DNA of 64,000 nucleotides from NCBI GenBank assembly GCA_028130375.1, contig GCA_028130375.1_3658.1. One strand, 5' to 3'. Source of the DNA: a phage. Position 1 is the first letter of the stretch; each line of letters begins with the position of its first letter. Positions 46 to 48,033 of this stretch are shown piece by piece. The notes under the pieces are model-generated. The model was given only the letters and a program-made list of their open reading frames with translations, had not been told where the DNA came from and made no database searches. Position numbers and translations under genes: made by a program.

Positions 46-1371
46 ATGAGCAAAACCAAATTAGAACTTACCTGGATAGGTAAAAACGAGCGCAAAAAGT
101 TAGAGCCCCACATTTTGTTAGAAGATTCTAGCAAATCTTACCACAGCCAGAAAGTGACCGAAAACGATATTTTTGATAATAAACTGATTTTTGGAGATAA
201 CTTATTAGCATTGAAGGCGCTAGAGCAAGAGTATGCAGGCAAAGTGAAGTGTGTTTACATAGACCCACCATTCAATACCGGGAGGGCTTTTGAGCATTAC
301 GATGATAGCCTGGAGCATTCCATTTGGCTGGGCTTAATGAGGGATAGGTTAGAAATAATTCGTAATCTTCTAAGTGATGATGGGGTAATATTCGTTCACT
401 TAGATGATTGCGAAATGGCGTATTTAAAAGTTTTGATGGACGAGATTTTTGGTCGTGCAAATCAGTTAAATACCATATCGATGACCACAAATTCCCCTTC
501 GGGATTTAAGGCAACAGGAGCCACAGTTTTCTCCACAGCAAACTTTTTGCTTGTATATGCAAAAGATCGCACCCAGAAACCGCTTAACAAAATCTATATA
601 CCTAAAGGGTATGATACAGGATATAACAAATACCTATTAAACCCGGATGACCATTATAAAAATTGGACGTGGTGCGGTATTGCCGATGCGTTTGCAAAGG
701 CCAATGGCTATAAAGATGCAAAAGAAGCCAAGAAAAAACTGCCTGATACATTCGATGATGAATTAGCACAATTCGCAATTGATAATGCAGAACGTGTATT
801 TCAATCTGTTGCAATTGGTGGTGGTGCTAAAATAAAGAGAAAAGAAACTATCGAGAAGTCAAAGAAAGATAGGGATAAGGTTTATGTACATCCAAATGAG
901 GATGTTGAAGGATTTTATATCGCAAATGGTAGGCAAATGGTCTTTTACTCCAATAGGCTTTTGGAAATTGACGGTGAGATGCAACCTGCGGAACTAATAA
1001 CTGATGTTTGGACAGACATTAGTTGGAATGGAATAGCAAATGAAGGCGGCGTTAGTTTCAAAAATGGGAAAAAACCAGAAGCGCTTTTGAAGCGGATTTT
1101 CGAAATGTGCACGCGAGAAGGCGATTTGGTATTGGATTCATTCGGTGGTTCTGGAACTACTGCTGCTGTAGCTCATAAGATGAAAAGACGCTGGATCTCA
1201 ATCGAGCTAGGTGATCATTGTCATACCCATATTATTCCGCGCTTGGAAAAAGTGATCGATGGCGAAGATCAAGGTGGTATTTCTAAGTCTGTAAACTGGC
1301 AAGGTGGTGGTGGCTTCCGTTATTACAAACTTGCCCCGGCCTTAGTTGCGAAAGATAAGTCTGATCAATAA
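46..1371 (+). CDS. DNA methyltransferase, beta-class amino-MTase (N6-adenine or N4-cytosine); motif IV DPPF precedes motif I
   Basis: 441 aa; ..VYIDPPFNTG.. near N-terminus and ..DSFGGSGTTAAVA.. (FxGxG SAM-binding) near C-terminus; RBS AAGGAGAG. Confidence 0.8.
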   Translation: MSKTKLELTWIGKNERKKLEPHILLEDSSKSYHSQKVTENDIFDNKLIFGDNLLALKALEQEYAGKVKCVYIDPPFNTGRAFEHYDDSLEHSIWLGLMRDRLEIIRNLLSDDGVIFVHLDDCEMAYLKVLMDEIFGRANQLNTISMTTNSPSGFKATGATVFSTANFLLVYAKDRTQKPLNKIYIPKGYDTGYNKYLLNPDDHYKNWTWCGIADAFAKANGYKDAKEAKKKLPDTFDDELAQFAIDNAERVFQSVAIGGGAKIKRKETIEKSKKDRDKVYVHPNEDVEGFYIANGRQMVFYSNRLLEIDGEMQPAELITDVWTDISWNGIANEGGVSFKNGKKPEALLKRIFEMCTREGDLVLDSFGGSGTTAAVAHKMKRRWISIELGDHCHTHIIPRLEKVIDGEDQGGISKSVNWQGGGGFRYYKLAPALVAKDKSDQ

Positions 1372-1384
1372 AGAGTACAATCAA

Positions 1385-1690
1385 ATGATGAAACGTTATA
1401 AACCATACACTTTTGAAATCGATTTCGAACTTGACGATATGTTCACTGTGGAAGCTCAGGCAGTTGTCCAGTTGCCAGACCCAGAGTGTCGTGATTCTGA
1501 TGTTGACTATTATGGATTTAGACAGATCACTGATGTGCATGTTTACCACAACGGTGAAGAGGTGGACTTCCACAAACTGCCAAACGATATGCGCCACTCA
1601 ATTTACAAACGTGCAGCCCGTGAACTAGAGTCCTATCTTGATGCAGCGACGACAGCAGCTGCATTTGCCGAAGAAGTGGGAGGTTTCTGA
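1385..1690 (+). CDS. hypothetical protein
   Basis: ORF; first ATG after upstream stop at 1369-1371 chosen over the track start 1346. Confidence 0.45.
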   Translation: MMKRYKPYTFEIDFELDDMFTVEAQAVVQLPDPECRDSDVDYYGFRQITDVHVYHNGEEVDFHKLPNDMRHSIYKRAARELESYLDAATTAAAFAEEVGGF

Positions 1691-2085
1691 TGATTACAGA
1701 TGTGAAGATTGTCCAATACCACTTAACCAAGTTGGAAGATGCTGAGAAAGAGCTTGCAGAAGTTCTGAATAGTGGATATACTTTGCTATCATGCGCCTGC
1801 TCAGACACCTACGCTGTGTGGACACTTATCAGGAAGGAAGAGCCTGCAGGGATCTTGGTGCCAAACCCTAAGATTATTAGTGAGGTGGATGACTACCCCC
1901 AGGACGGCCTGCCAGAAGGCTGGGAAGTATGGGAAGGTGGTGAAAACCCTGCACCAGGTAAGTGGGTAAAATACAAACTACGTAGTGGTGCACAGTACGC
2001 TGACTACTCTGATGACCTAGACTGGAGTCATTCTTCACCAGGATCATCTGCAAGTTCATATGATATCGTTGCTTTTCAGGAATAA
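1690..2085 (+). CDS. hypothetical protein
   Basis: 131 aa ORF; ATG overlaps upstream stop (TGATG); GGGAGG RBS. Confidence 0.5.
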   Translation: MITDVKIVQYHLTKLEDAEKELAEVLNSGYTLLSCACSDTYAVWTLIRKEEPAGILVPNPKIISEVDDYPQDGLPEGWEVWEGGENPAPGKWVKYKLRSGAQYADYSDDLDWSHSSPGSSASSYDIVAFQE

Positions 2086-2097
2086 GGAGAGGGTGTT

Positions 2098-2580
2098 ATG
2101 TCAGATTTTATGTGGAAAGTAGGCTATGCCACTCCTGAAATGTGCGAGGCTTGCTTTGTGAAAATAGGCCGCGAGGATATCGACAAAGTGATCCTTAAGT
2201 TTCGTGATGTGGCTGTGATCGGCAACCGAGTGCTTAAGCACTTAAAGAATCTGAAGCTCACTAAAAAGAAGTTCTTCGGGCTTTTCGAAGAGAAAGTTGA
2301 TGCTTGGACCCATTGCATTCAGGAAGCTAAATCTCACTACAGTGCTATCGTTACTCCAGAACGGGTAGCTAAGATGGAAGGATTCATTAACAGCACAGAA
2401 TTTGAGTGTCTGAAAGCTGCACTCGATAGTTATCCGAAATGCCTTAAGCACTTGGACAAGTATGCAGAAAAGGATGGGGAAATGTATCTAACCCTGGACG
2501 CATATTATGAGATGCAAGAAATTTTAAATTTAGATTTGACATTGGTATCCACCGAGTATACAATAGGTATCCGGGTTTAA
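2098..2580 (+). CDS. hypothetical protein
   Basis: 160 aa ORF; RBS AAGGAGAGGG 6 nt upstream. Confidence 0.55.
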   Translation: MSDFMWKVGYATPEMCEACFVKIGREDIDKVILKFRDVAVIGNRVLKHLKNLKLTKKKFFGLFEEKVDAWTHCIQEAKSHYSAIVTPERVAKMEGFINSTEFECLKAALDSYPKCLKHLDKYAEKDGEMYLTLDAYYEMQEILNLDLTLVSTEYTIGIRV

Positions 2581-2586
2581 CACTAG

Positions 2587-2613
2587 GCCCTGCCCGAAAG
2601 GGTGGGGCTTTTT
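2587..2613 (+). terminator. intrinsic terminator (GCCCTGCCC-GAAA-GGGTGGGGC, T5)
   Basis: 9-bp stem with two G-U pairs, GNRA tetraloop, then TTTTT; identical copy at 12754-12781. Confidence 0.6.
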
Positions 2614-3396
2614 GCATTAGGAGACAGCAAATTGAAATTTATCTACAAAGAACACTACCACAAAGGTGTTGTGTGGAGTCTATTTGACGGGTCTGGTGGT
2701 GCAGTCATTGACTGGGCAAAAGCTGGGTACCTGTGCCTGTGCTTTAATGCAGAAGGCGCTGATCACGGCAGTTATGCAGAGGTGATCACCGATCATCCCA
2801 ACATTCACTATGTGGACTATTGGATTGACCCGTGGTTCCCTCAGGAAACTTTTTGCATGTATCCGGCTCCAGATTTTATTCTTGCATTTCCTCCGTGCAC
2901 GCATTTAGCGGTATCAGGTGCTGCACATTTTAAGAAAAAGCTGGCTAAGGACCCCATGATCCAAATTAATGCTGTAAAGGATGCTCGGGTTGCGGAAGAG
3001 CTGGGAGAGATTTACGATTGCCCGTGGCATGTAGAGAATCCTGTGGGTGTTATGTCCACACTGTGGCGCAAACCTGATTACCGTTTTCACCCTTCGGATT
3101 ATGGCGGGTATTTACCGGAAGATGATGTAAACCCATGGTTTCCTGAATTTATAGCTCCACGTGATGCCTATCCAAAAATAACTTGCGGCTGGATAGGTAA
3201 TGGATTTATAATCCCAGCCACAAAACCTGTCCCGCAAATAGTTGACGCGGTTAGCGGGTATTCCATGCAACACGCCAAGCTGGGTGGAAAGAGTGCAAGA
3301 ACGAAGATGATTCGAAGCCTCACACCACGTGGCTGGGCAAAAGCCGTATTCCTAGCAAACGAGCCTGTAGTAAGGAGCAGAATTAATGGGAAGTAA
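2602..3396 (+). CDS. DNA (cytosine-5)-methyltransferase-like protein, compact and divergent
   Basis: Motif I-like SLFDGSGG, motif IV-like AFPPCTHLAVSGA (PC with catalytic Cys, T replacing Q), motif VI-like VENPVG; track start is GTG inside the terminator, a TTG at 2632 behind AGGAGA may be the true start. Confidence 0.5.
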   Translation: MGLFALGDSKLKFIYKEHYHKGVVWSLFDGSGGAVIDWAKAGYLCLCFNAEGADHGSYAEVITDHPNIHYVDYWIDPWFPQETFCMYPAPDFILAFPPCTHLAVSGAAHFKKKLAKDPMIQINAVKDARVAEELGEIYDCPWHVENPVGVMSTLWRKPDYRFHPSDYGGYLPEDDVNPWFPEFIAPRDAYPKITCGWIGNGFIIPATKPVPQIVDAVSGYSMQHAKLGGKSARTKMIRSLTPRGWAKAVFLANEPVVRSRINGK

Positions 3397-44736: not shown

Positions 44737-45087
44737 TTACTGCAACAGTTTTTCAATAGCCGCTTCCATGCTGCTTGCAACAGCCTGAACTCGGATATTC
44801 ATCTCTTCTTGGTGGATCAGCTCCTTAAGCTCTTTAATGGTAAATTCTTTAGAGAAACCTTCCACCATAATCTTGTGCAAGGCTTCTTGCGTGTCTACTT
44901 GCAAGAACTTTTCCAGTTTGTTGGCAGAGGCTTCTAAATCAGCCCGAATACGAGGGTCATCTGTGCGATTCAGCATTAGGCGTAAGCCATCAAGATTAGT
45001 AGAAATAGCATCTGCATGTTGAGTAACTAACCGTGGCAAAATGAGATCTACAAACTTATTAGCCAAATCGATACGTTCTTGTGTCAC
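44737..45087 (-). CDS. hypothetical protein
   Basis: 116 aa; GTG start overlaps upstream stop. Confidence 0.45.
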   Translation of the reverse strand: MTQERIDLANKFVDLILPRLVTQHADAISTNLDGLRLMLNRTDDPRIRADLEASANKLEKFLQVDTQEALHKIMVEGFSKEFTIKELKELIHQEEMNIRVQAVASSMEAAIEKLLQ

Positions 45088-45197
45088 TGTTGCACCCCCT
45101 CTTCATCTTCATGATGTTTCTTTTCACGCTTGTGTTTTTTCTTAAGCTCAAGCGCAATCTCTTTCTTGTACGCCTTCTTCAAGGCTTTTTTAGCCAT
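45084..45197 (-). CDS. small highly basic protein (37 aa)
   Basis: Not in the track; strong RBS AGAGGAGGTG; MAKKALKKAYKKEIALELKKKHKREKKHHEDEEGVQQ. Confidence 0.35.
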   Translation of the reverse strand: MAKKALKKAYKKEIALELKKKHKREKKHHEDEEGVQQ

Positions 45198-45259: not shown

Positions 45260-45733
45260 CTAGTCTACCTGAACCCAACCGCCTGATACTTTTTTAAACA
45301 TTCTTTGGTTATCACTGCCTCTGAACGGTTTCTTGGTTGGTAAATCTTTTACATACTTACCGTCAATGATGATATCAGCCAGTTTAAGAACATCACTAGA
45401 GATATGGTCAAATGTGAACCCAGTATATACAAGAATAGTTTTCTTGTCACCAAATTTTTCCTTAATTTTCTCCATCAGGCTAATAATATCTGGCTCATTA
45501 TAGTATGCTAAGGGTTCTCCACCCAGTAGAGAGATACCGCACACAGACGGGTTATCTAAATCTGACAAGATTTTTTGCAAGTCTTCTTCAGTGAACTTCC
45601 TCCCCTTATCTTTTGACCAAAATGCCTGATTAAAGCAACCAGGGCAAGCGTGTGGGCACCCAGATACCCACAAGGCAGTTCTAATACCTGGTCCTTCGGT
45701 GTAAGATATTTCTGTGTATCCAGCAATGTTCAT
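45260..45733 (-). CDS. nrdG: anaerobic ribonucleotide reductase activating protein (radical SAM)
   Basis: 157 aa; ..VSGCPHACPGCFN.. CxxxCxxC radical-SAM cluster motif; adjacent to nrdD. Confidence 0.85.
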   Translation of the reverse strand: MNIAGYTEISYTEGPGIRTALWVSGCPHACPGCFNQAFWSKDKGRKFTEEDLQKILSDLDNPSVCGISLLGGEPLAYYNEPDIISLMEKIKEKFGDKKTILVYTGFTFDHISSDVLKLADIIIDGKYVKDLPTKKPFRGSDNQRMFKKVSGGWVQVD

Positions 45734-45846
45734 AGATACTCCGCATCACATTTAGGGCAATGCCAAATAAAATCGTCTAGTGCCTTGCACCAACGAAGAT
45801 TACAACTACAGCCGCACTTGCAAATTTTATAAATACCTGATGACAT
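45730..45846 (-). CDS. small Cys-rich protein (38 aa, 8 Cys), coupled to nrdG
   Basis: Not in the track; RBS AGGAGGTG; MSSGIYKICKCGCSCNLRWCKALDDFIWHCPKCDAEYL; stop overlaps nrdG ATG. Confidence 0.4.
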   Translation of the reverse strand: MSSGIYKICKCGCSCNLRWCKALDDFIWHCPKCDAEYL

Positions 45847-45909
45847 ACTGCACCTCCTAGCTCACTGTGTGTCAATAATATGCCACATCCTTGTGGCTTT
45901 TGTCAAGAA

Positions 45910-48033
45910 TCAGCAACCACAACTTCCGTAGTGCTTAACTCGCTCGATAACTTCCGCTTGCTTACCTTTATTGTAAGGACGGGAGTTAGGACTGGAAAGG
46001 TATCCAGACACACGTCGAATTACACTGATCGTTCCCTCTTCATGGTTTCCACACTCTGGGCATACAAAGCCTTTAGCTGTTGCACTGAACTCACCAGAGA
46101 AACCACACTTGAGACATTTATCCACAGGTTGGTTAATACCAAAATACATAATGTGTTTATACCCGAAGTCAACAAGAGCCTCTAAAGCATCCAGGTTGTT
46201 TTTCAGGTTAGGTGTTTCTACGTATCCGATGTTGCCACCAGAGGAGATCATAGCAAAACCTTCCTCATACTCCCACTTATCAAAAGGAGAGCTATTTATC
46301 CATACTGGCTGATGGAAACTGTTGGTGAGATATTCATGCTCGTGCTTCAACACTTCCGGATATTCACGATCCAGACAGGTTGCAGCTTTATAGCATAGAC
46401 TCTCAGAAGGAGTGCCGTACAAGCTAAATGCTAGTCTACTTTCCTTCTTGTATCGCTCACAAGCATCTCTCATGTGCTGAAGGATTCCAAGAGCTAAAGC
46501 CTTGTCACCCTCTCTGCCCAAAATCTGACAGGTTTCATACACACCGATATACCCAATACTGATGGAAGCGTACCCGTCATAGAAGAGTTTATCAATACTC
46601 TCTTCAGGATCCAGGCGAGCAAGAGCGCCTTCACACCACATGATGGGGTTCTGCCCTGCCTTTGTTCCTTTTAGACGATTAACCCTTACAAGGTGAGCCT
46701 CGTATGCAAGATCCAAGTATTCGTCAAGAACTGCAAAGAAATCAACACCTTCCGTCTTGGCTTTTGCCGCAATCATTGGCAGGTTAAGGCTAACAACGCC
46801 TAAGTTAAATCTGCCAAGGTATTTCTCCTCGCCTGTTTCCAAGTCATTGTATTTGCTAAGAAAACTCCTGCAACCCATGCTAGTTACTTTGCCATCTGTC
46901 GAGCCTGTCACTTTTCTATTTAGTGGTACAGATACGAAGTCAGGATAGATACGTTCTGCACAGCATTCCAGAGCTAATCGTTTCAAATCATAGTTAGGAT
47001 CCCCAGGGTTCATGTTGACACCCTCTTCCAGGAAGAACAGCACTTTAGGGAACACAGGTGTGATACGTTCTTCACCAAGACCCATTTTGTGGACTTTCAG
47101 GTAGTTTTTGGTAATCATTCTACCAAAGACCGAGGTATCCAGTCCTAAACTCAATGTGATGAATGGAGTTTGCCCGTTGACAGAAGTTAACGTGTTGATT
47201 TGATAGAGCAAAGTCTGCATGCTGTCAAATACGTCTTTATCTGTCATTTGCATTGCAACAGTTTCAGCATCCGGCAACCAATGTTCCTGGCAAAATTTAA
47301 GGTTCTTCTCATAGGTTGCTTCAGCATACTGTGCCAGATAATGATCAATATGGCTCATAGTCTGACCACCATATTGAGCACTAGCTACCGCACTAGAGAT
47401 TTGGCTAAGGATTGTTGTTGCAACCCCTATTGACTTCGGCTTACTGACATGGGCGTTACCAATGTTGAATCCGTTTTCCAACATATCTGGATAATTTACC
47501 AAACAACAGTTTGTTAACGGACTGATCAAGTAGTCAAGATCATGCACATGGATGAATCCTTTATTGTGCTCTTCGGAGACACGGTCTGGCAGGATCTGTG
47601 TTGATGCAAGGTGTTTGCTAAGAATACCTGCAAGCAGGTCGCGATGAGTGTGTACATGATTAGTAGGCTTATTTGCGTTTTCTTTTGTAAATTCATCACA
47701 AGTTCGATCCAAGAAGCCACTAATATCTGCAAGCAGTTTTCCACCTGCCTCTCTGTTATTATCTCTTGTCTGTCTATACTGGATGTATTCTCTGGCTGCA
47801 CATTTTAAACCCATATCCATAAGAGCATCTTCAACAAGGATATGGATATTTTTTACAGAGATCGTGCACTGGTCGGTTGGTAGATTGTTAGCAACAACTT
47901 CATTAACCGCGCAGGCGATCCGGTAAGCTTCTTCTTCAGTATGTCCAGACTCAAGTAAGGCGGACTCTGCCGCCTTGATCACCTTAATTCCGTTATAGAA
48001 CTCTTCTCTACCGTCCCGTTTTACAACTTTCAC
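45910..48033 (-). CDS. nrdD: anaerobic ribonucleoside-triphosphate reductase (class III)
   Basis: 707 aa; N-terminal ATP-cone-like ..VVKRDGREEFYNG..; C-terminal zinc ribbon CLKCG..CPECG and glycyl-radical region ..IRRVSGYLS.. Confidence 0.88.
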   Translation of the reverse strand: MKVVKRDGREEFYNGIKVIKAAESALLESGHTEEEAYRIACAVNEVVANNLPTDQCTISVKNIHILVEDALMDMGLKCAAREYIQYRQTRDNNREAGGKLLADISGFLDRTCDEFTKENANKPTNHVHTHRDLLAGILSKHLASTQILPDRVSEEHNKGFIHVHDLDYLISPLTNCCLVNYPDMLENGFNIGNAHVSKPKSIGVATTILSQISSAVASAQYGGQTMSHIDHYLAQYAEATYEKNLKFCQEHWLPDAETVAMQMTDKDVFDSMQTLLYQINTLTSVNGQTPFITLSLGLDTSVFGRMITKNYLKVHKMGLGEERITPVFPKVLFFLEEGVNMNPGDPNYDLKRLALECCAERIYPDFVSVPLNRKVTGSTDGKVTSMGCRSFLSKYNDLETGEEKYLGRFNLGVVSLNLPMIAAKAKTEGVDFFAVLDEYLDLAYEAHLVRVNRLKGTKAGQNPIMWCEGALARLDPEESIDKLFYDGYASISIGYIGVYETCQILGREGDKALALGILQHMRDACERYKKESRLAFSLYGTPSESLCYKAATCLDREYPEVLKHEHEYLTNSFHQPVWINSSPFDKWEYEEGFAMISSGGNIGYVETPNLKNNLDALEALVDFGYKHIMYFGINQPVDKCLKCGFSGEFSATAKGFVCPECGNHEEGTISVIRRVSGYLSSPNSRPYNKGKQAEVIERVKHYGSCGC

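Follow-up and report, generated by a model that had tools for sequence, protein, structure and literature searches.

A seven-cysteine microprotein gene between nrdD and nrdG of an rV5-like coliphage: a conserved coding sequence with a zinc-ribbon-type pattern

Small cysteine-rich proteins are found both among free-standing zinc ribbons and beside radical enzymes, and the gene described here invites comparison with each of these groups. It is a micro-ORF (open reading frame, ORF) of 38 codons that lies between nrdD and nrdG, the genes of the class III (anaerobic) ribonucleotide reductase (RNR), in a 64,000-nucleotide stretch of phage DNA (GenBank assembly GCA_028130375.1, contig GCA_028130375.1_3658.1), hereafter the window. 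The top fold and motif matches of its product are small zinc-ribbon/CPxCG microproteins and ribbons, namely Haloferax HVO_0758 (PDB 8q5b), Thermus ZifS (PDB 8yoz), RPB9, ELOF1 and eL43. The microprotein shares with this class a size of 36-60 aa, two knuckles (CxxCG-like and CPxC) and a predicted three-stranded sheet; it differs in three added invariant cysteines (CxxCxCxC-x4-C) and in a first knuckle shortened to CxC in the window variant, and as no sequence or fold score is significant, the likeness is one of structural class and not of a demonstrated homologous family.

Small Fe-binding cysteine-rich subunits have been described in three glycyl radical enzymes, HPAD, BSS and MASS; these are BSS beta and gamma, HPAD gamma, and MASS beta, gamma and delta, of which MASS delta is rubredoxin-like (PMC13450708). 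Like them, the microprotein is tiny, rich in cysteine and encoded beside a glycyl radical enzyme (here NrdD) and its activase; unlike them, its gene is also found in a phage where a DNA ligase gene, and not a glycyl radical enzyme gene, follows it. We know of no small cysteine-rich Fe-binding subunit of class III RNR. In class II RNR the cysteine-rich CRD, characterized by Loderer et al. (2017), comprises about 30 residues and six cysteines, four of which bind Zn while two form a redox pair (PMC5704485). This RNR-associated electron shuttle is comparable to the microprotein in size and cysteine richness, a likeness of description and not of alignment, whereas it belongs to another RNR class, has a CX2CX9CX2CX2CX5C spacing and is fused to the catalytic subunit, the microprotein being a separate ORF. 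Finally, Com of phage Mu, a zinc-finger protein with a CxxC...CPxC layout, activates the translation of mom and is encoded by a small gene upstream of and overlapping mom. The micro-ORF resembles com in encoding a small CxxC...CPxC protein and in overlapping the start of the next gene; it differs in having no conserved downstream RNA target and in standing free in 33 genomes.

A conserved coding sequence

The source phage is an rV5-like coliphage of the genus Vequintavirus, and the 901-bp region around the micro-ORF is 99.9% identical to slur16, slur12, Bas53 and others. The gene and its translation signals are located as follows.

45730..45846, minus strand: micro-ORF, coding sequence (CDS) of the 38-aa seven-cysteine microprotein, stop codon included (ORF list and sequence; phrog_20137; purifying selection)
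45852..45858, minus strand: Shine-Dalgarno sequence AGGAGGT, read from the sequence, with AGGAGG itself at 45858..45853
45730..45733, minus strand: ATGA stop/start overlap of micro-ORF and nrdG, a termination-reinitiation junction (TGA 45732..45730, nrdG ATG 45733..45731)
45739..45742, minus strand: GGAG within micro-ORF codons 35-36, 5 nt 5' of the nrdG ATG, read from the sequence

The micro-ORF translates into the 38-aa protein MSSGIYKICKCGCSCNLRWCKALDDFIWHCPKCDAEYL. Its ATG (45846..45844) is separated from the Shine-Dalgarno sequence by the 5-nt spacer GCAGT, and this Shine-Dalgarno sequence is retained in phage naam (TAAGGAGGTGCAGTATG) although the rest of the upstream flank there differs. 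The GGAG motif near the 3' end is likely nrdG's own Shine-Dalgarno sequence and would act as its ribosome-binding site (RBS). An earlier note on this DNA, made from the letters alone, had reported an AGGAGG RBS and a stop overlapping the nrdG start, and both were found in place, the former 5 nt from the ATG; the eight cysteines it counted are in fact seven (positions 9, 11, 13, 15, 20, 30 and 33), as they also are in the motif string that it gave.

The micro-ORF is a genuine, strongly conserved gene. Its coding character was assessed on nine distinct nucleotide versions taken from GenBank, IMG/VR, Logan and ENA contigs and compared over a core of 27 codons. Variable sites were distributed 10/6/19 over the three codon positions, and the pooled ratio of nonsynonymous to synonymous differences (pN/pS) was 0.12 in the micro-ORF frame, compared with 0.28 in the antisense frame that shares its wobble positions and at least 0.9 in the remaining four frames. 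The cysteine codons alternate between TGC and TGT while the cysteine itself is always kept, and between the window and the most divergent locus (L008; L numbers designate the loci compared) pS reaches 0.83 with a pN of 0.044. A 60-aa antisense ORF (45650..45832, plus strand) was rejected as a gene on its pN/pS of 0.28 against 0.12 and because no RBS was seen; it stays open in relatives because its wobble positions are shared with the micro-ORF frame. A structured RNA element in place of a gene is unlikely and was also discarded, since an Rfam search of the micro-ORF region returned no match and the folding energy of the micro-ORF RNA is ordinary (z = -0.22).

By itself, cysteine richness is weak evidence for a gene. 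The window contains three ORFs of 30-60 aa with at least seven cysteines, against 0.4 expected in shuffles; the other two have seven cysteines each, start with TTG or GTG and lie inside other genes. The micro-ORF is therefore established as a gene by its conservation and not by its cysteine content.

The ORF is already present in databases, as a hypothetical protein and in PHROG, and hence is not itself new; no function is assigned to it there. It is annotated as a CDS in FFH2 (gp178) and Bas53 (Bas53_0180), several records calling it "hypothetical protein", and the RefSeq entries of FFH2 and JES2013 label it "ribonucleotide reductase". Residues 1-38 match positions 1-38 of the phrog_20137 profile with E = 4.7e-30, and a 53-aa variant matches the same profile at 8e-23; phrog_20137 is the family of the microprotein itself, its 38-position profile being matched from end to end. 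This family also bears the label 'ribonucleotide reductase', yet the microprotein has no RNR domain in Pfam, and the label looks like a carry-over from the neighbouring genes. Among the titles and abstracts listed by literature searches aimed at Vequintavirus phages, none dealt with the microprotein.

Seven invariant cysteines and a predicted zinc ribbon

In an alignment of 13 cluster representatives, 23 of the 38 columns are invariant, including all seven cysteines and also G12, L17-R18-W19, L23-D24-D25, I27-W28, P31 and E36-Y37-L38. The position of His29 alternates with Tyr, so this residue is not a metal ligand. The protein has 36 aa in Vectrevirus, 38 aa in Vequintavirus and 41 aa in L009, and forms of 53-54 aa with a Lys/Glu-rich N-terminal extension occur in L008 and L010. 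The first knuckle is CxxC (CKDC or CKHC) in the variants of 41-54 aa and CxC (CKC) in those of 36-38 aa, so that the pattern of the family reads C-x(1-2)-C-G-C-x-C-N-L-R-W-C-x9-C-P-x-C. Two Cys-Cys knuckles about 15-20 residues apart are expected of a zinc ribbon, and the family has C-x(1-2)-C and C-P-x-C separated by 18 residues, without variation.

AlphaFold2 models computed from family alignments reached a pLDDT of 66 (window protein) and 80 (41-aa variant), and both showed a three-stranded sheet. In a Foldseek search of the PDB, zinc ribbons headed the list (the N-terminal domain of the NUDIX protein 3cng, ZifS, RPB9 and ELOF1) with no significant score; L37Ae and HVO_0758 were also among the nearest structures, again at non-significant scores. 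A fold search of BFVD returned the family itself first, followed by generic viral zinc ribbons. A sequence profile search of the PDB detected similarity at the level of the knuckles only, the second knuckle, IWHCPKC, being identical in ribosomal protein eL43. Neither Pfam (E up to 1) nor NCBIfam gave a match, and membership of the rubredoxin family PF00301 was likewise not detected in these searches. The earlier proposal of a rubredoxin or zinc-ribbon-like protein holds in its second half, with the knuckles, the predicted three-stranded sheet and zinc ribbons as the nearest structures at non-significant scores, and finds no rubredoxin match in Pfam or NCBIfam.

On these grounds we conclude that the microprotein probably has a zinc-ribbon-type fold with three extra invariant cysteines, the metal and the details of the fold being predicted ones. 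The knuckles Cys9/Cys11 and Cys30/Cys33 would most likely hold one Zn, while Cys13, Cys15 and Cys20, on or beside the first strand, may provide a second metal site with a shared thiolate or an intermolecular site; a total of seven cysteines would be compatible with a pair of tetrahedral sites that have one thiolate in common, or with a single site and an additional intermolecular one. The protein is best filed as a new uncharacterised zinc-ribbon microprotein, in which the CxxCxCxC-x4-C array and the documented horizontal mobility are the unusual features.

Distribution, genomic arrangements and neighbouring genes

A tblastn search found the micro-ORF in 122 phage records, in 121 of which it is intact over at least 80% of its length, and 14 clusters at 90% identity were recovered among 5.8 billion proteins. 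An exhaustive hidden Markov model search of 1.84 billion representatives added nothing further, P0015 from that search being a spurious repeat protein. Three IMG/VR loci and five true metagenome loci carry the micro-ORF; an apparent distant metagenome match (L022) was discarded as an off-frame stretch of a high-GC bacterial contig. No homologue was detected in a set of one genome per prokaryotic species or in 5,426 complete E. coli genomes. The family is very small: besides Vequintavirus it comprises some uncultured relatives and a handful of SP6-like Vectrevirus phages, and about 121 phage records contain it as against about 2,134 with a NrdG homologue. Conservation of the frame in related nrdDG loci, on which the earlier note had made its prediction depend, was observed in every Vequintavirus record and in the more divergent uncultured relatives. 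Eighteen 'Campylobacter phage' records (GenBank MG0656xx) hardly differ from E. coli Vequintavirus genomes along the query, and the sole plasmid match, PLSDB CP057073.1, is a 137.5-kb 'E. coli plasmid' of the size of a Vequintavirus genome that carries the micro-ORF and nrdG; these are probably host and replicon mislabels.

Three arrangements were distinguished. In type A, that of the window, nrdD, the micro-ORF, the ATGA junction and nrdG follow one another, as they do in about 85 phage records whose NrdG is at least 90% identical to that of the window. The same order occurs in L007, L017, L020 and L021 and in the divergent uncultured lineages L008 and L010, where synonymous sites are saturated and the microprotein core is almost unchanged. 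The ATGA junction recurs with nrdG in L007, L008 and L010, and with DNA ligase in phage ACG-C91 and in L011.

Type B comprises 33 Vequintavirus records (naam, rV5-type and others) in which the micro-ORF ends in its own TAA and overlaps no gene. Downstream of it are about 150 nt, an unrelated 78-aa ORF (phrog_3249) coupled to nrdG, and an nrdG allele 51.6% identical to that of the window; the phrog_3249 ORF is mislabelled 'putative minor capsid protein' in some records.

L014 (naam), 968..1674: type B replacement nrdG region

A variant of type B is found in phage Alma, whose micro-ORF is a frameshifted 61-aa version. The nrdG annotated in the same phage (L004, 1770..2395) is a truncated one of 130 aa, and the usual C-terminal residues of NrdG (...PTKKPFRGSDNQRMFKKVADGWVQVD) are found in a second, overlapping ORF of 78 aa. 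Two further variants of type B are an ENA contig (P0014), in which a deletion fuses codon 20 of the micro-ORF to the 78-aa ORF of phrog_3249, and L009, in which an additional 34-aa ORF separates the micro-ORF from nrdG. In the sister genus Seunavirus and in the more distant Phapecoctavirus, the nrdD stop overlaps the nrdG start with nothing in between.

Type C is represented by vB_EcoP_ACG-C91, an SP6-like podovirus of the genus Vectrevirus (43.7 kb), and by two Logan/ENA clusters, where a 36-aa homologue, not annotated, is 77% identical to the window protein and keeps all seven cysteines. Here the gene is located between a nucleotide kinase gene (DUF3310) and an ATP-dependent DNA ligase gene, to which it is ATGA-coupled; nrdD and nrdG are not listed in the part of the annotated 43.7-kb ACG-C91 record that was covered. 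Nucleotide similarity between types A and C sets in a few codons past the start of the ORF and stops at ATGAATAT, which corresponds to the first codons (MNI) of both nrdG and the ligase gene. Close Vectrevirus relatives have flanks 98% identical and other inserts in the same slot, either a 38-aa C4 zinc ribbon (K1E, UTI89UKE2) or a 57-aa non-Cys ORF (vB_EcoP_B).

L012, 899..1072: ORF in the Vectrevirus kinase/ligase slot
L013, 899..1015: ORF in the Vectrevirus kinase/ligase slot
L003, 4001..4108: ORF in the Vectrevirus kinase/ligase slot

The three slot ORFs are mutually unrelated; each of them begins immediately 3' of the kinase stop and is joined to the ligase gene by an ATGA overlap. Homology of the seven-cysteine family to the K1E-type C4 cassette was rejected, hhalign returning a probability of 15% over 7 columns. 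The C4 cassette itself showed weak, sub-threshold matches to the Lar restriction-alleviation and ECs_2282 families; for Lar-type membership (TIGR03655, phrog_599) the seven-cysteine protein had no match, and only the K1E-type cassette gave sub-threshold ones.

The genes and the promoter-like element that surround the micro-ORF in the window are listed below.

45260..45733, minus strand: nrdG, radical SAM activating enzyme of class III RNR, 157 aa (Pfam Fer4_12 at 1e-42, Radical_SAM; phrog_626)
45910..48033, minus strand: nrdD, class III RNR catalytic subunit, 707 aa (Pfam and PHROG; comparison of C-terminal tails)
45877..45906, minus strand: sigma-70-like promoter match TTGACA, 18 nt, TG-CATATT (10/12 matches) in the spacer between nrdD and the micro-ORF, from a consensus scan only

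nrdD lies upstream and its end (45910) is 63 nt from the micro-ORF. Between the two hexamers of the promoter-like match is a 6-bp GC-rich hairpin, GCCACAAGGATGTGGC (45897..45882); the promoter-like site is also conserved in L007, and the GenBank record of phage Murica annotates a terminator and an RBS beneath the micro-ORF match.

NrdD contains an ATP-cone, the NRDD domain, a glycyl radical domain, a C4 zinc ribbon and a C-terminal tail ending in ...YGSCGC. Origin of the microprotein by duplication of this NrdD zinc ribbon was considered and rejected (hhalign probability 11%). The full ATP-cone (Pfam, residues 1-91) is present only in the 707-aa form, the Bas53 annotation being 71 codons shorter and cutting into it, and the GTG start of nrdD overlaps the stop of an upstream glutaredoxin gene (GTGA, 48030..48033, minus strand). 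The gene is uninterrupted in the window, and insertions occur in relatives (L001, FFH2, 270..3191; L008, 3399..3908; L009, 862..3948; L010, 687..3936): in FFH2 and L009 nrdD is interrupted by an HNH endonuclease, in L010 it contains a 264-aa ORF, and in L008 a free-standing HNH/AP2-like ORF separates it from the micro-ORF. The nrdD locus is an insertion hot spot. After the conserved ...RVKH, the NrdD tail (45910..45930, minus strand, in the window; L008, L009, L010, L015 and L016 compared) varies by lineage, being YGSCGC or YGSCSC in Vequintavirus, TNNGDCCSIY in L008, VGNVDYCPLSK in L009 and FH in L010; that of Seunavirus and Phapecoctavirus consists of one residue. Terminal cysteine pairs of this kind recall the electron-shuttle tails of class I and II RNRs. 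The idea of a 'zinc clasp', in which the micro-ORF would track the cysteine pair of the NrdD tail, was dropped: there is no consistent link between the two, because L010 has the ORF and a tail without cysteine.

A second microprotein gene is located just 3' of nrdG (45084..45197, minus strand). It overlaps at its 3' end with the beginning of the following gene, of 116 aa. Its product is a 37-aa Lys-rich protein, MAKKALKKAYKKEIALELKKKHKREKKHHEDEEGVQQ, with a phrog_7670 match of 2e-20, and the FFH2 and Bas53 records list it as hypothetical. In composition it resembles the Lys/Glu-rich N-terminal extension of the 53-54-aa seven-cysteine variants.

Possible roles of the microprotein

Coding, purifying selection, invariant cysteines, three genomic arrangements and absence elsewhere are established for this gene. 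To explain them we favour, with about an even chance of being right, a stand-alone zinc-ribbon binding module encoded by a portable accessory gene, whose target would be common to both phage families, and not a dedicated partner of the reductase. The portable character is probable because an unrelated phage has the same gene in front of its DNA ligase gene and hardly any other nrdD-nrdG locus contains it. A compact cassette made of the Shine-Dalgarno sequence and the ORF would have been inserted into tight, translationally coupled junctions of DNA-metabolism genes in two unrelated coliphage lineages. In the window it would be translated from its own strong RBS, ribosomes terminating at the TGA would reinitiate at the overlapping nrdG ATG, and the adjacency to nrdG would reflect the landing site and not an obligatory partnership. 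Since the core is nearly frozen across phages that share little but their E. coli host, the product may serve as a small module that binds a protein or nucleic acid target, either encoded by the host or universal in some other way, and because E. coli is common to both phage families, this target would most simply be a host component. Several observations weigh against such an explanation. All large phages with the gene (about 121 records and, in addition, metagenome contigs) have it directly after nrdD, a strong positional association that opportunistic insertion does not require, and the Vectrevirus host has its own NrdD and NrdG, so that the ligase context is compatible with a role directed at RNR. 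The metal could be Fe; the CxxCG and DD..W.CPxC motifs are also rubredoxin-like.

The constant position directly 3' of nrdD in Vequintavirus-like genomes and the ATGA coupling to nrdG in about 85 records, which favours matched co-expression, are the points from which an accessory metal or redox subunit can be argued, that is, an Fe or Zn microprotein docking on phage or host NrdD/NrdG to pass electrons to the [4Fe-4S] cluster of NrdG or to protect and stabilise the glycyl-radical domain. The rubredoxin-like knuckles are in keeping with it, as are the glutaredoxin gene overlapping the nrdD start and the NrdDG of the E. coli host, on which the podovirus protein could act; precedents are offered by the small Fe-binding subunits of HPAD, BSS and MASS (PMC13450708) and by the six-cysteine zinc finger that serves as an electron shuttle in class II RNR (PMC5704485). 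On the other hand, the gene precedes a DNA ligase gene in Vectrevirus, 33 records have it uncoupled from nrdG, it is kept unchanged where nrdG is swapped for a 52%-identical allele, and the sister genera and about 2,000 other phage nrdG loci lack it. The gene does not strictly accompany that of the catalytic subunit, given the ligase context and the absence of the micro-ORF from most phage nrdDG loci. No rubredoxin match was obtained in Pfam, and neither the PDB sequence matches (E up to 10) nor the fold matches listed include a chain of BSS, HPAD or MASS. A dedicated NrdG redox partner is less likely than the stand-alone module because the gene persists with nrdG swapped or uncoupled and precedes a ligase gene elsewhere, and because class III RNR works without it almost everywhere; we regard such an accessory subunit as somewhat unlikely, and the redox partnership with NrdD/NrdG suggested in the earlier note gains no support from the comparative context. 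That the microprotein is a true small subunit of class III RNR, a rubredoxin-like or zinc-clasp module on phage or host NrdD or NrdG that delivers electrons or protects the glycyl radical, appears quite unlikely. If true, it would extend to an RNR a theme so far limited to HPAD, BSS and MASS, and would explain the gene in an SP6-like phage infecting gut E. coli.

The micro-ORF overlaps the gene that follows it in two settings that are unrelated, before nrdG and before the ligase gene, and it contains the likely Shine-Dalgarno sequence of nrdG. This might also suggest a translational regulator of the Com kind or a device that serves for coupling alone, the protein or its translation controlling the overlapped gene. 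The peptide is far too conserved for a mere coupling ORF, and the downstream genes differ, with none overlapped in 33 records, so that only ATGAATAT is shared and there is no conserved RNA target outside the ORF; as no unusual RNA structure was seen either, and hhalign against Mu Com gave a probability of 4% with no Pfam match, this role seems very unlikely. A bacterial metallothionein of the SmtA/BmtA type was rejected as well (no Pfam match; hhalign probability 1% against SmtA). An anti-defence or host-takeover factor, for example a zinc ribbon of the restriction-alleviation type, would be a specific version of the binding module favoured above. It would suit the variable small-gene slot of Vectrevirus, with its alternative C4 cassette weakly matching Lar and ECs_2282, as well as the occurrence in lytic phages only and the horizontal movement; the seven-cysteine protein itself has no match in NCBIfam, Pfam or other PHROGs (PADLOC was not searched), and hhalign found no relation to the K1E-type cassette. 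The nature of the Vectrevirus slot is what makes an anti-defence role possible, and we give it a slim chance. A chance ORF, or the decaying remnant of a homing-endonuclease insertion, might be imagined in a region that attracts HNH insertions and in view of the P0014 fusion and the Alma frameshift; strong purifying selection, the invariant cysteine pattern, the strong RBS and an intact ORF in about 120 genomes render it extremely improbable, and a non-functional ORF is effectively refuted by the substitution pattern.

Phage genomes are rich in very short ORFs, and it is seldom clear whether these are real genes. Here an ORF of 38 aa is demonstrably real and heavily constrained, and its movement between two unrelated coliphage families has in both cases placed it in a junction with translational coupling. 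Its "ribonucleotide reductase" label in the databases should be corrected. On present evidence the importance of the finding is modest, the protein being an uncharacterised member of a familiar structural class, and its 38 residues make it tractable for metal-binding and interaction studies. Should the anaerobic reductase prove to be its target, the microprotein would become the first small subunit known in that class of enzymes; with a host target, it would join the phage microproteins that manipulate E. coli.

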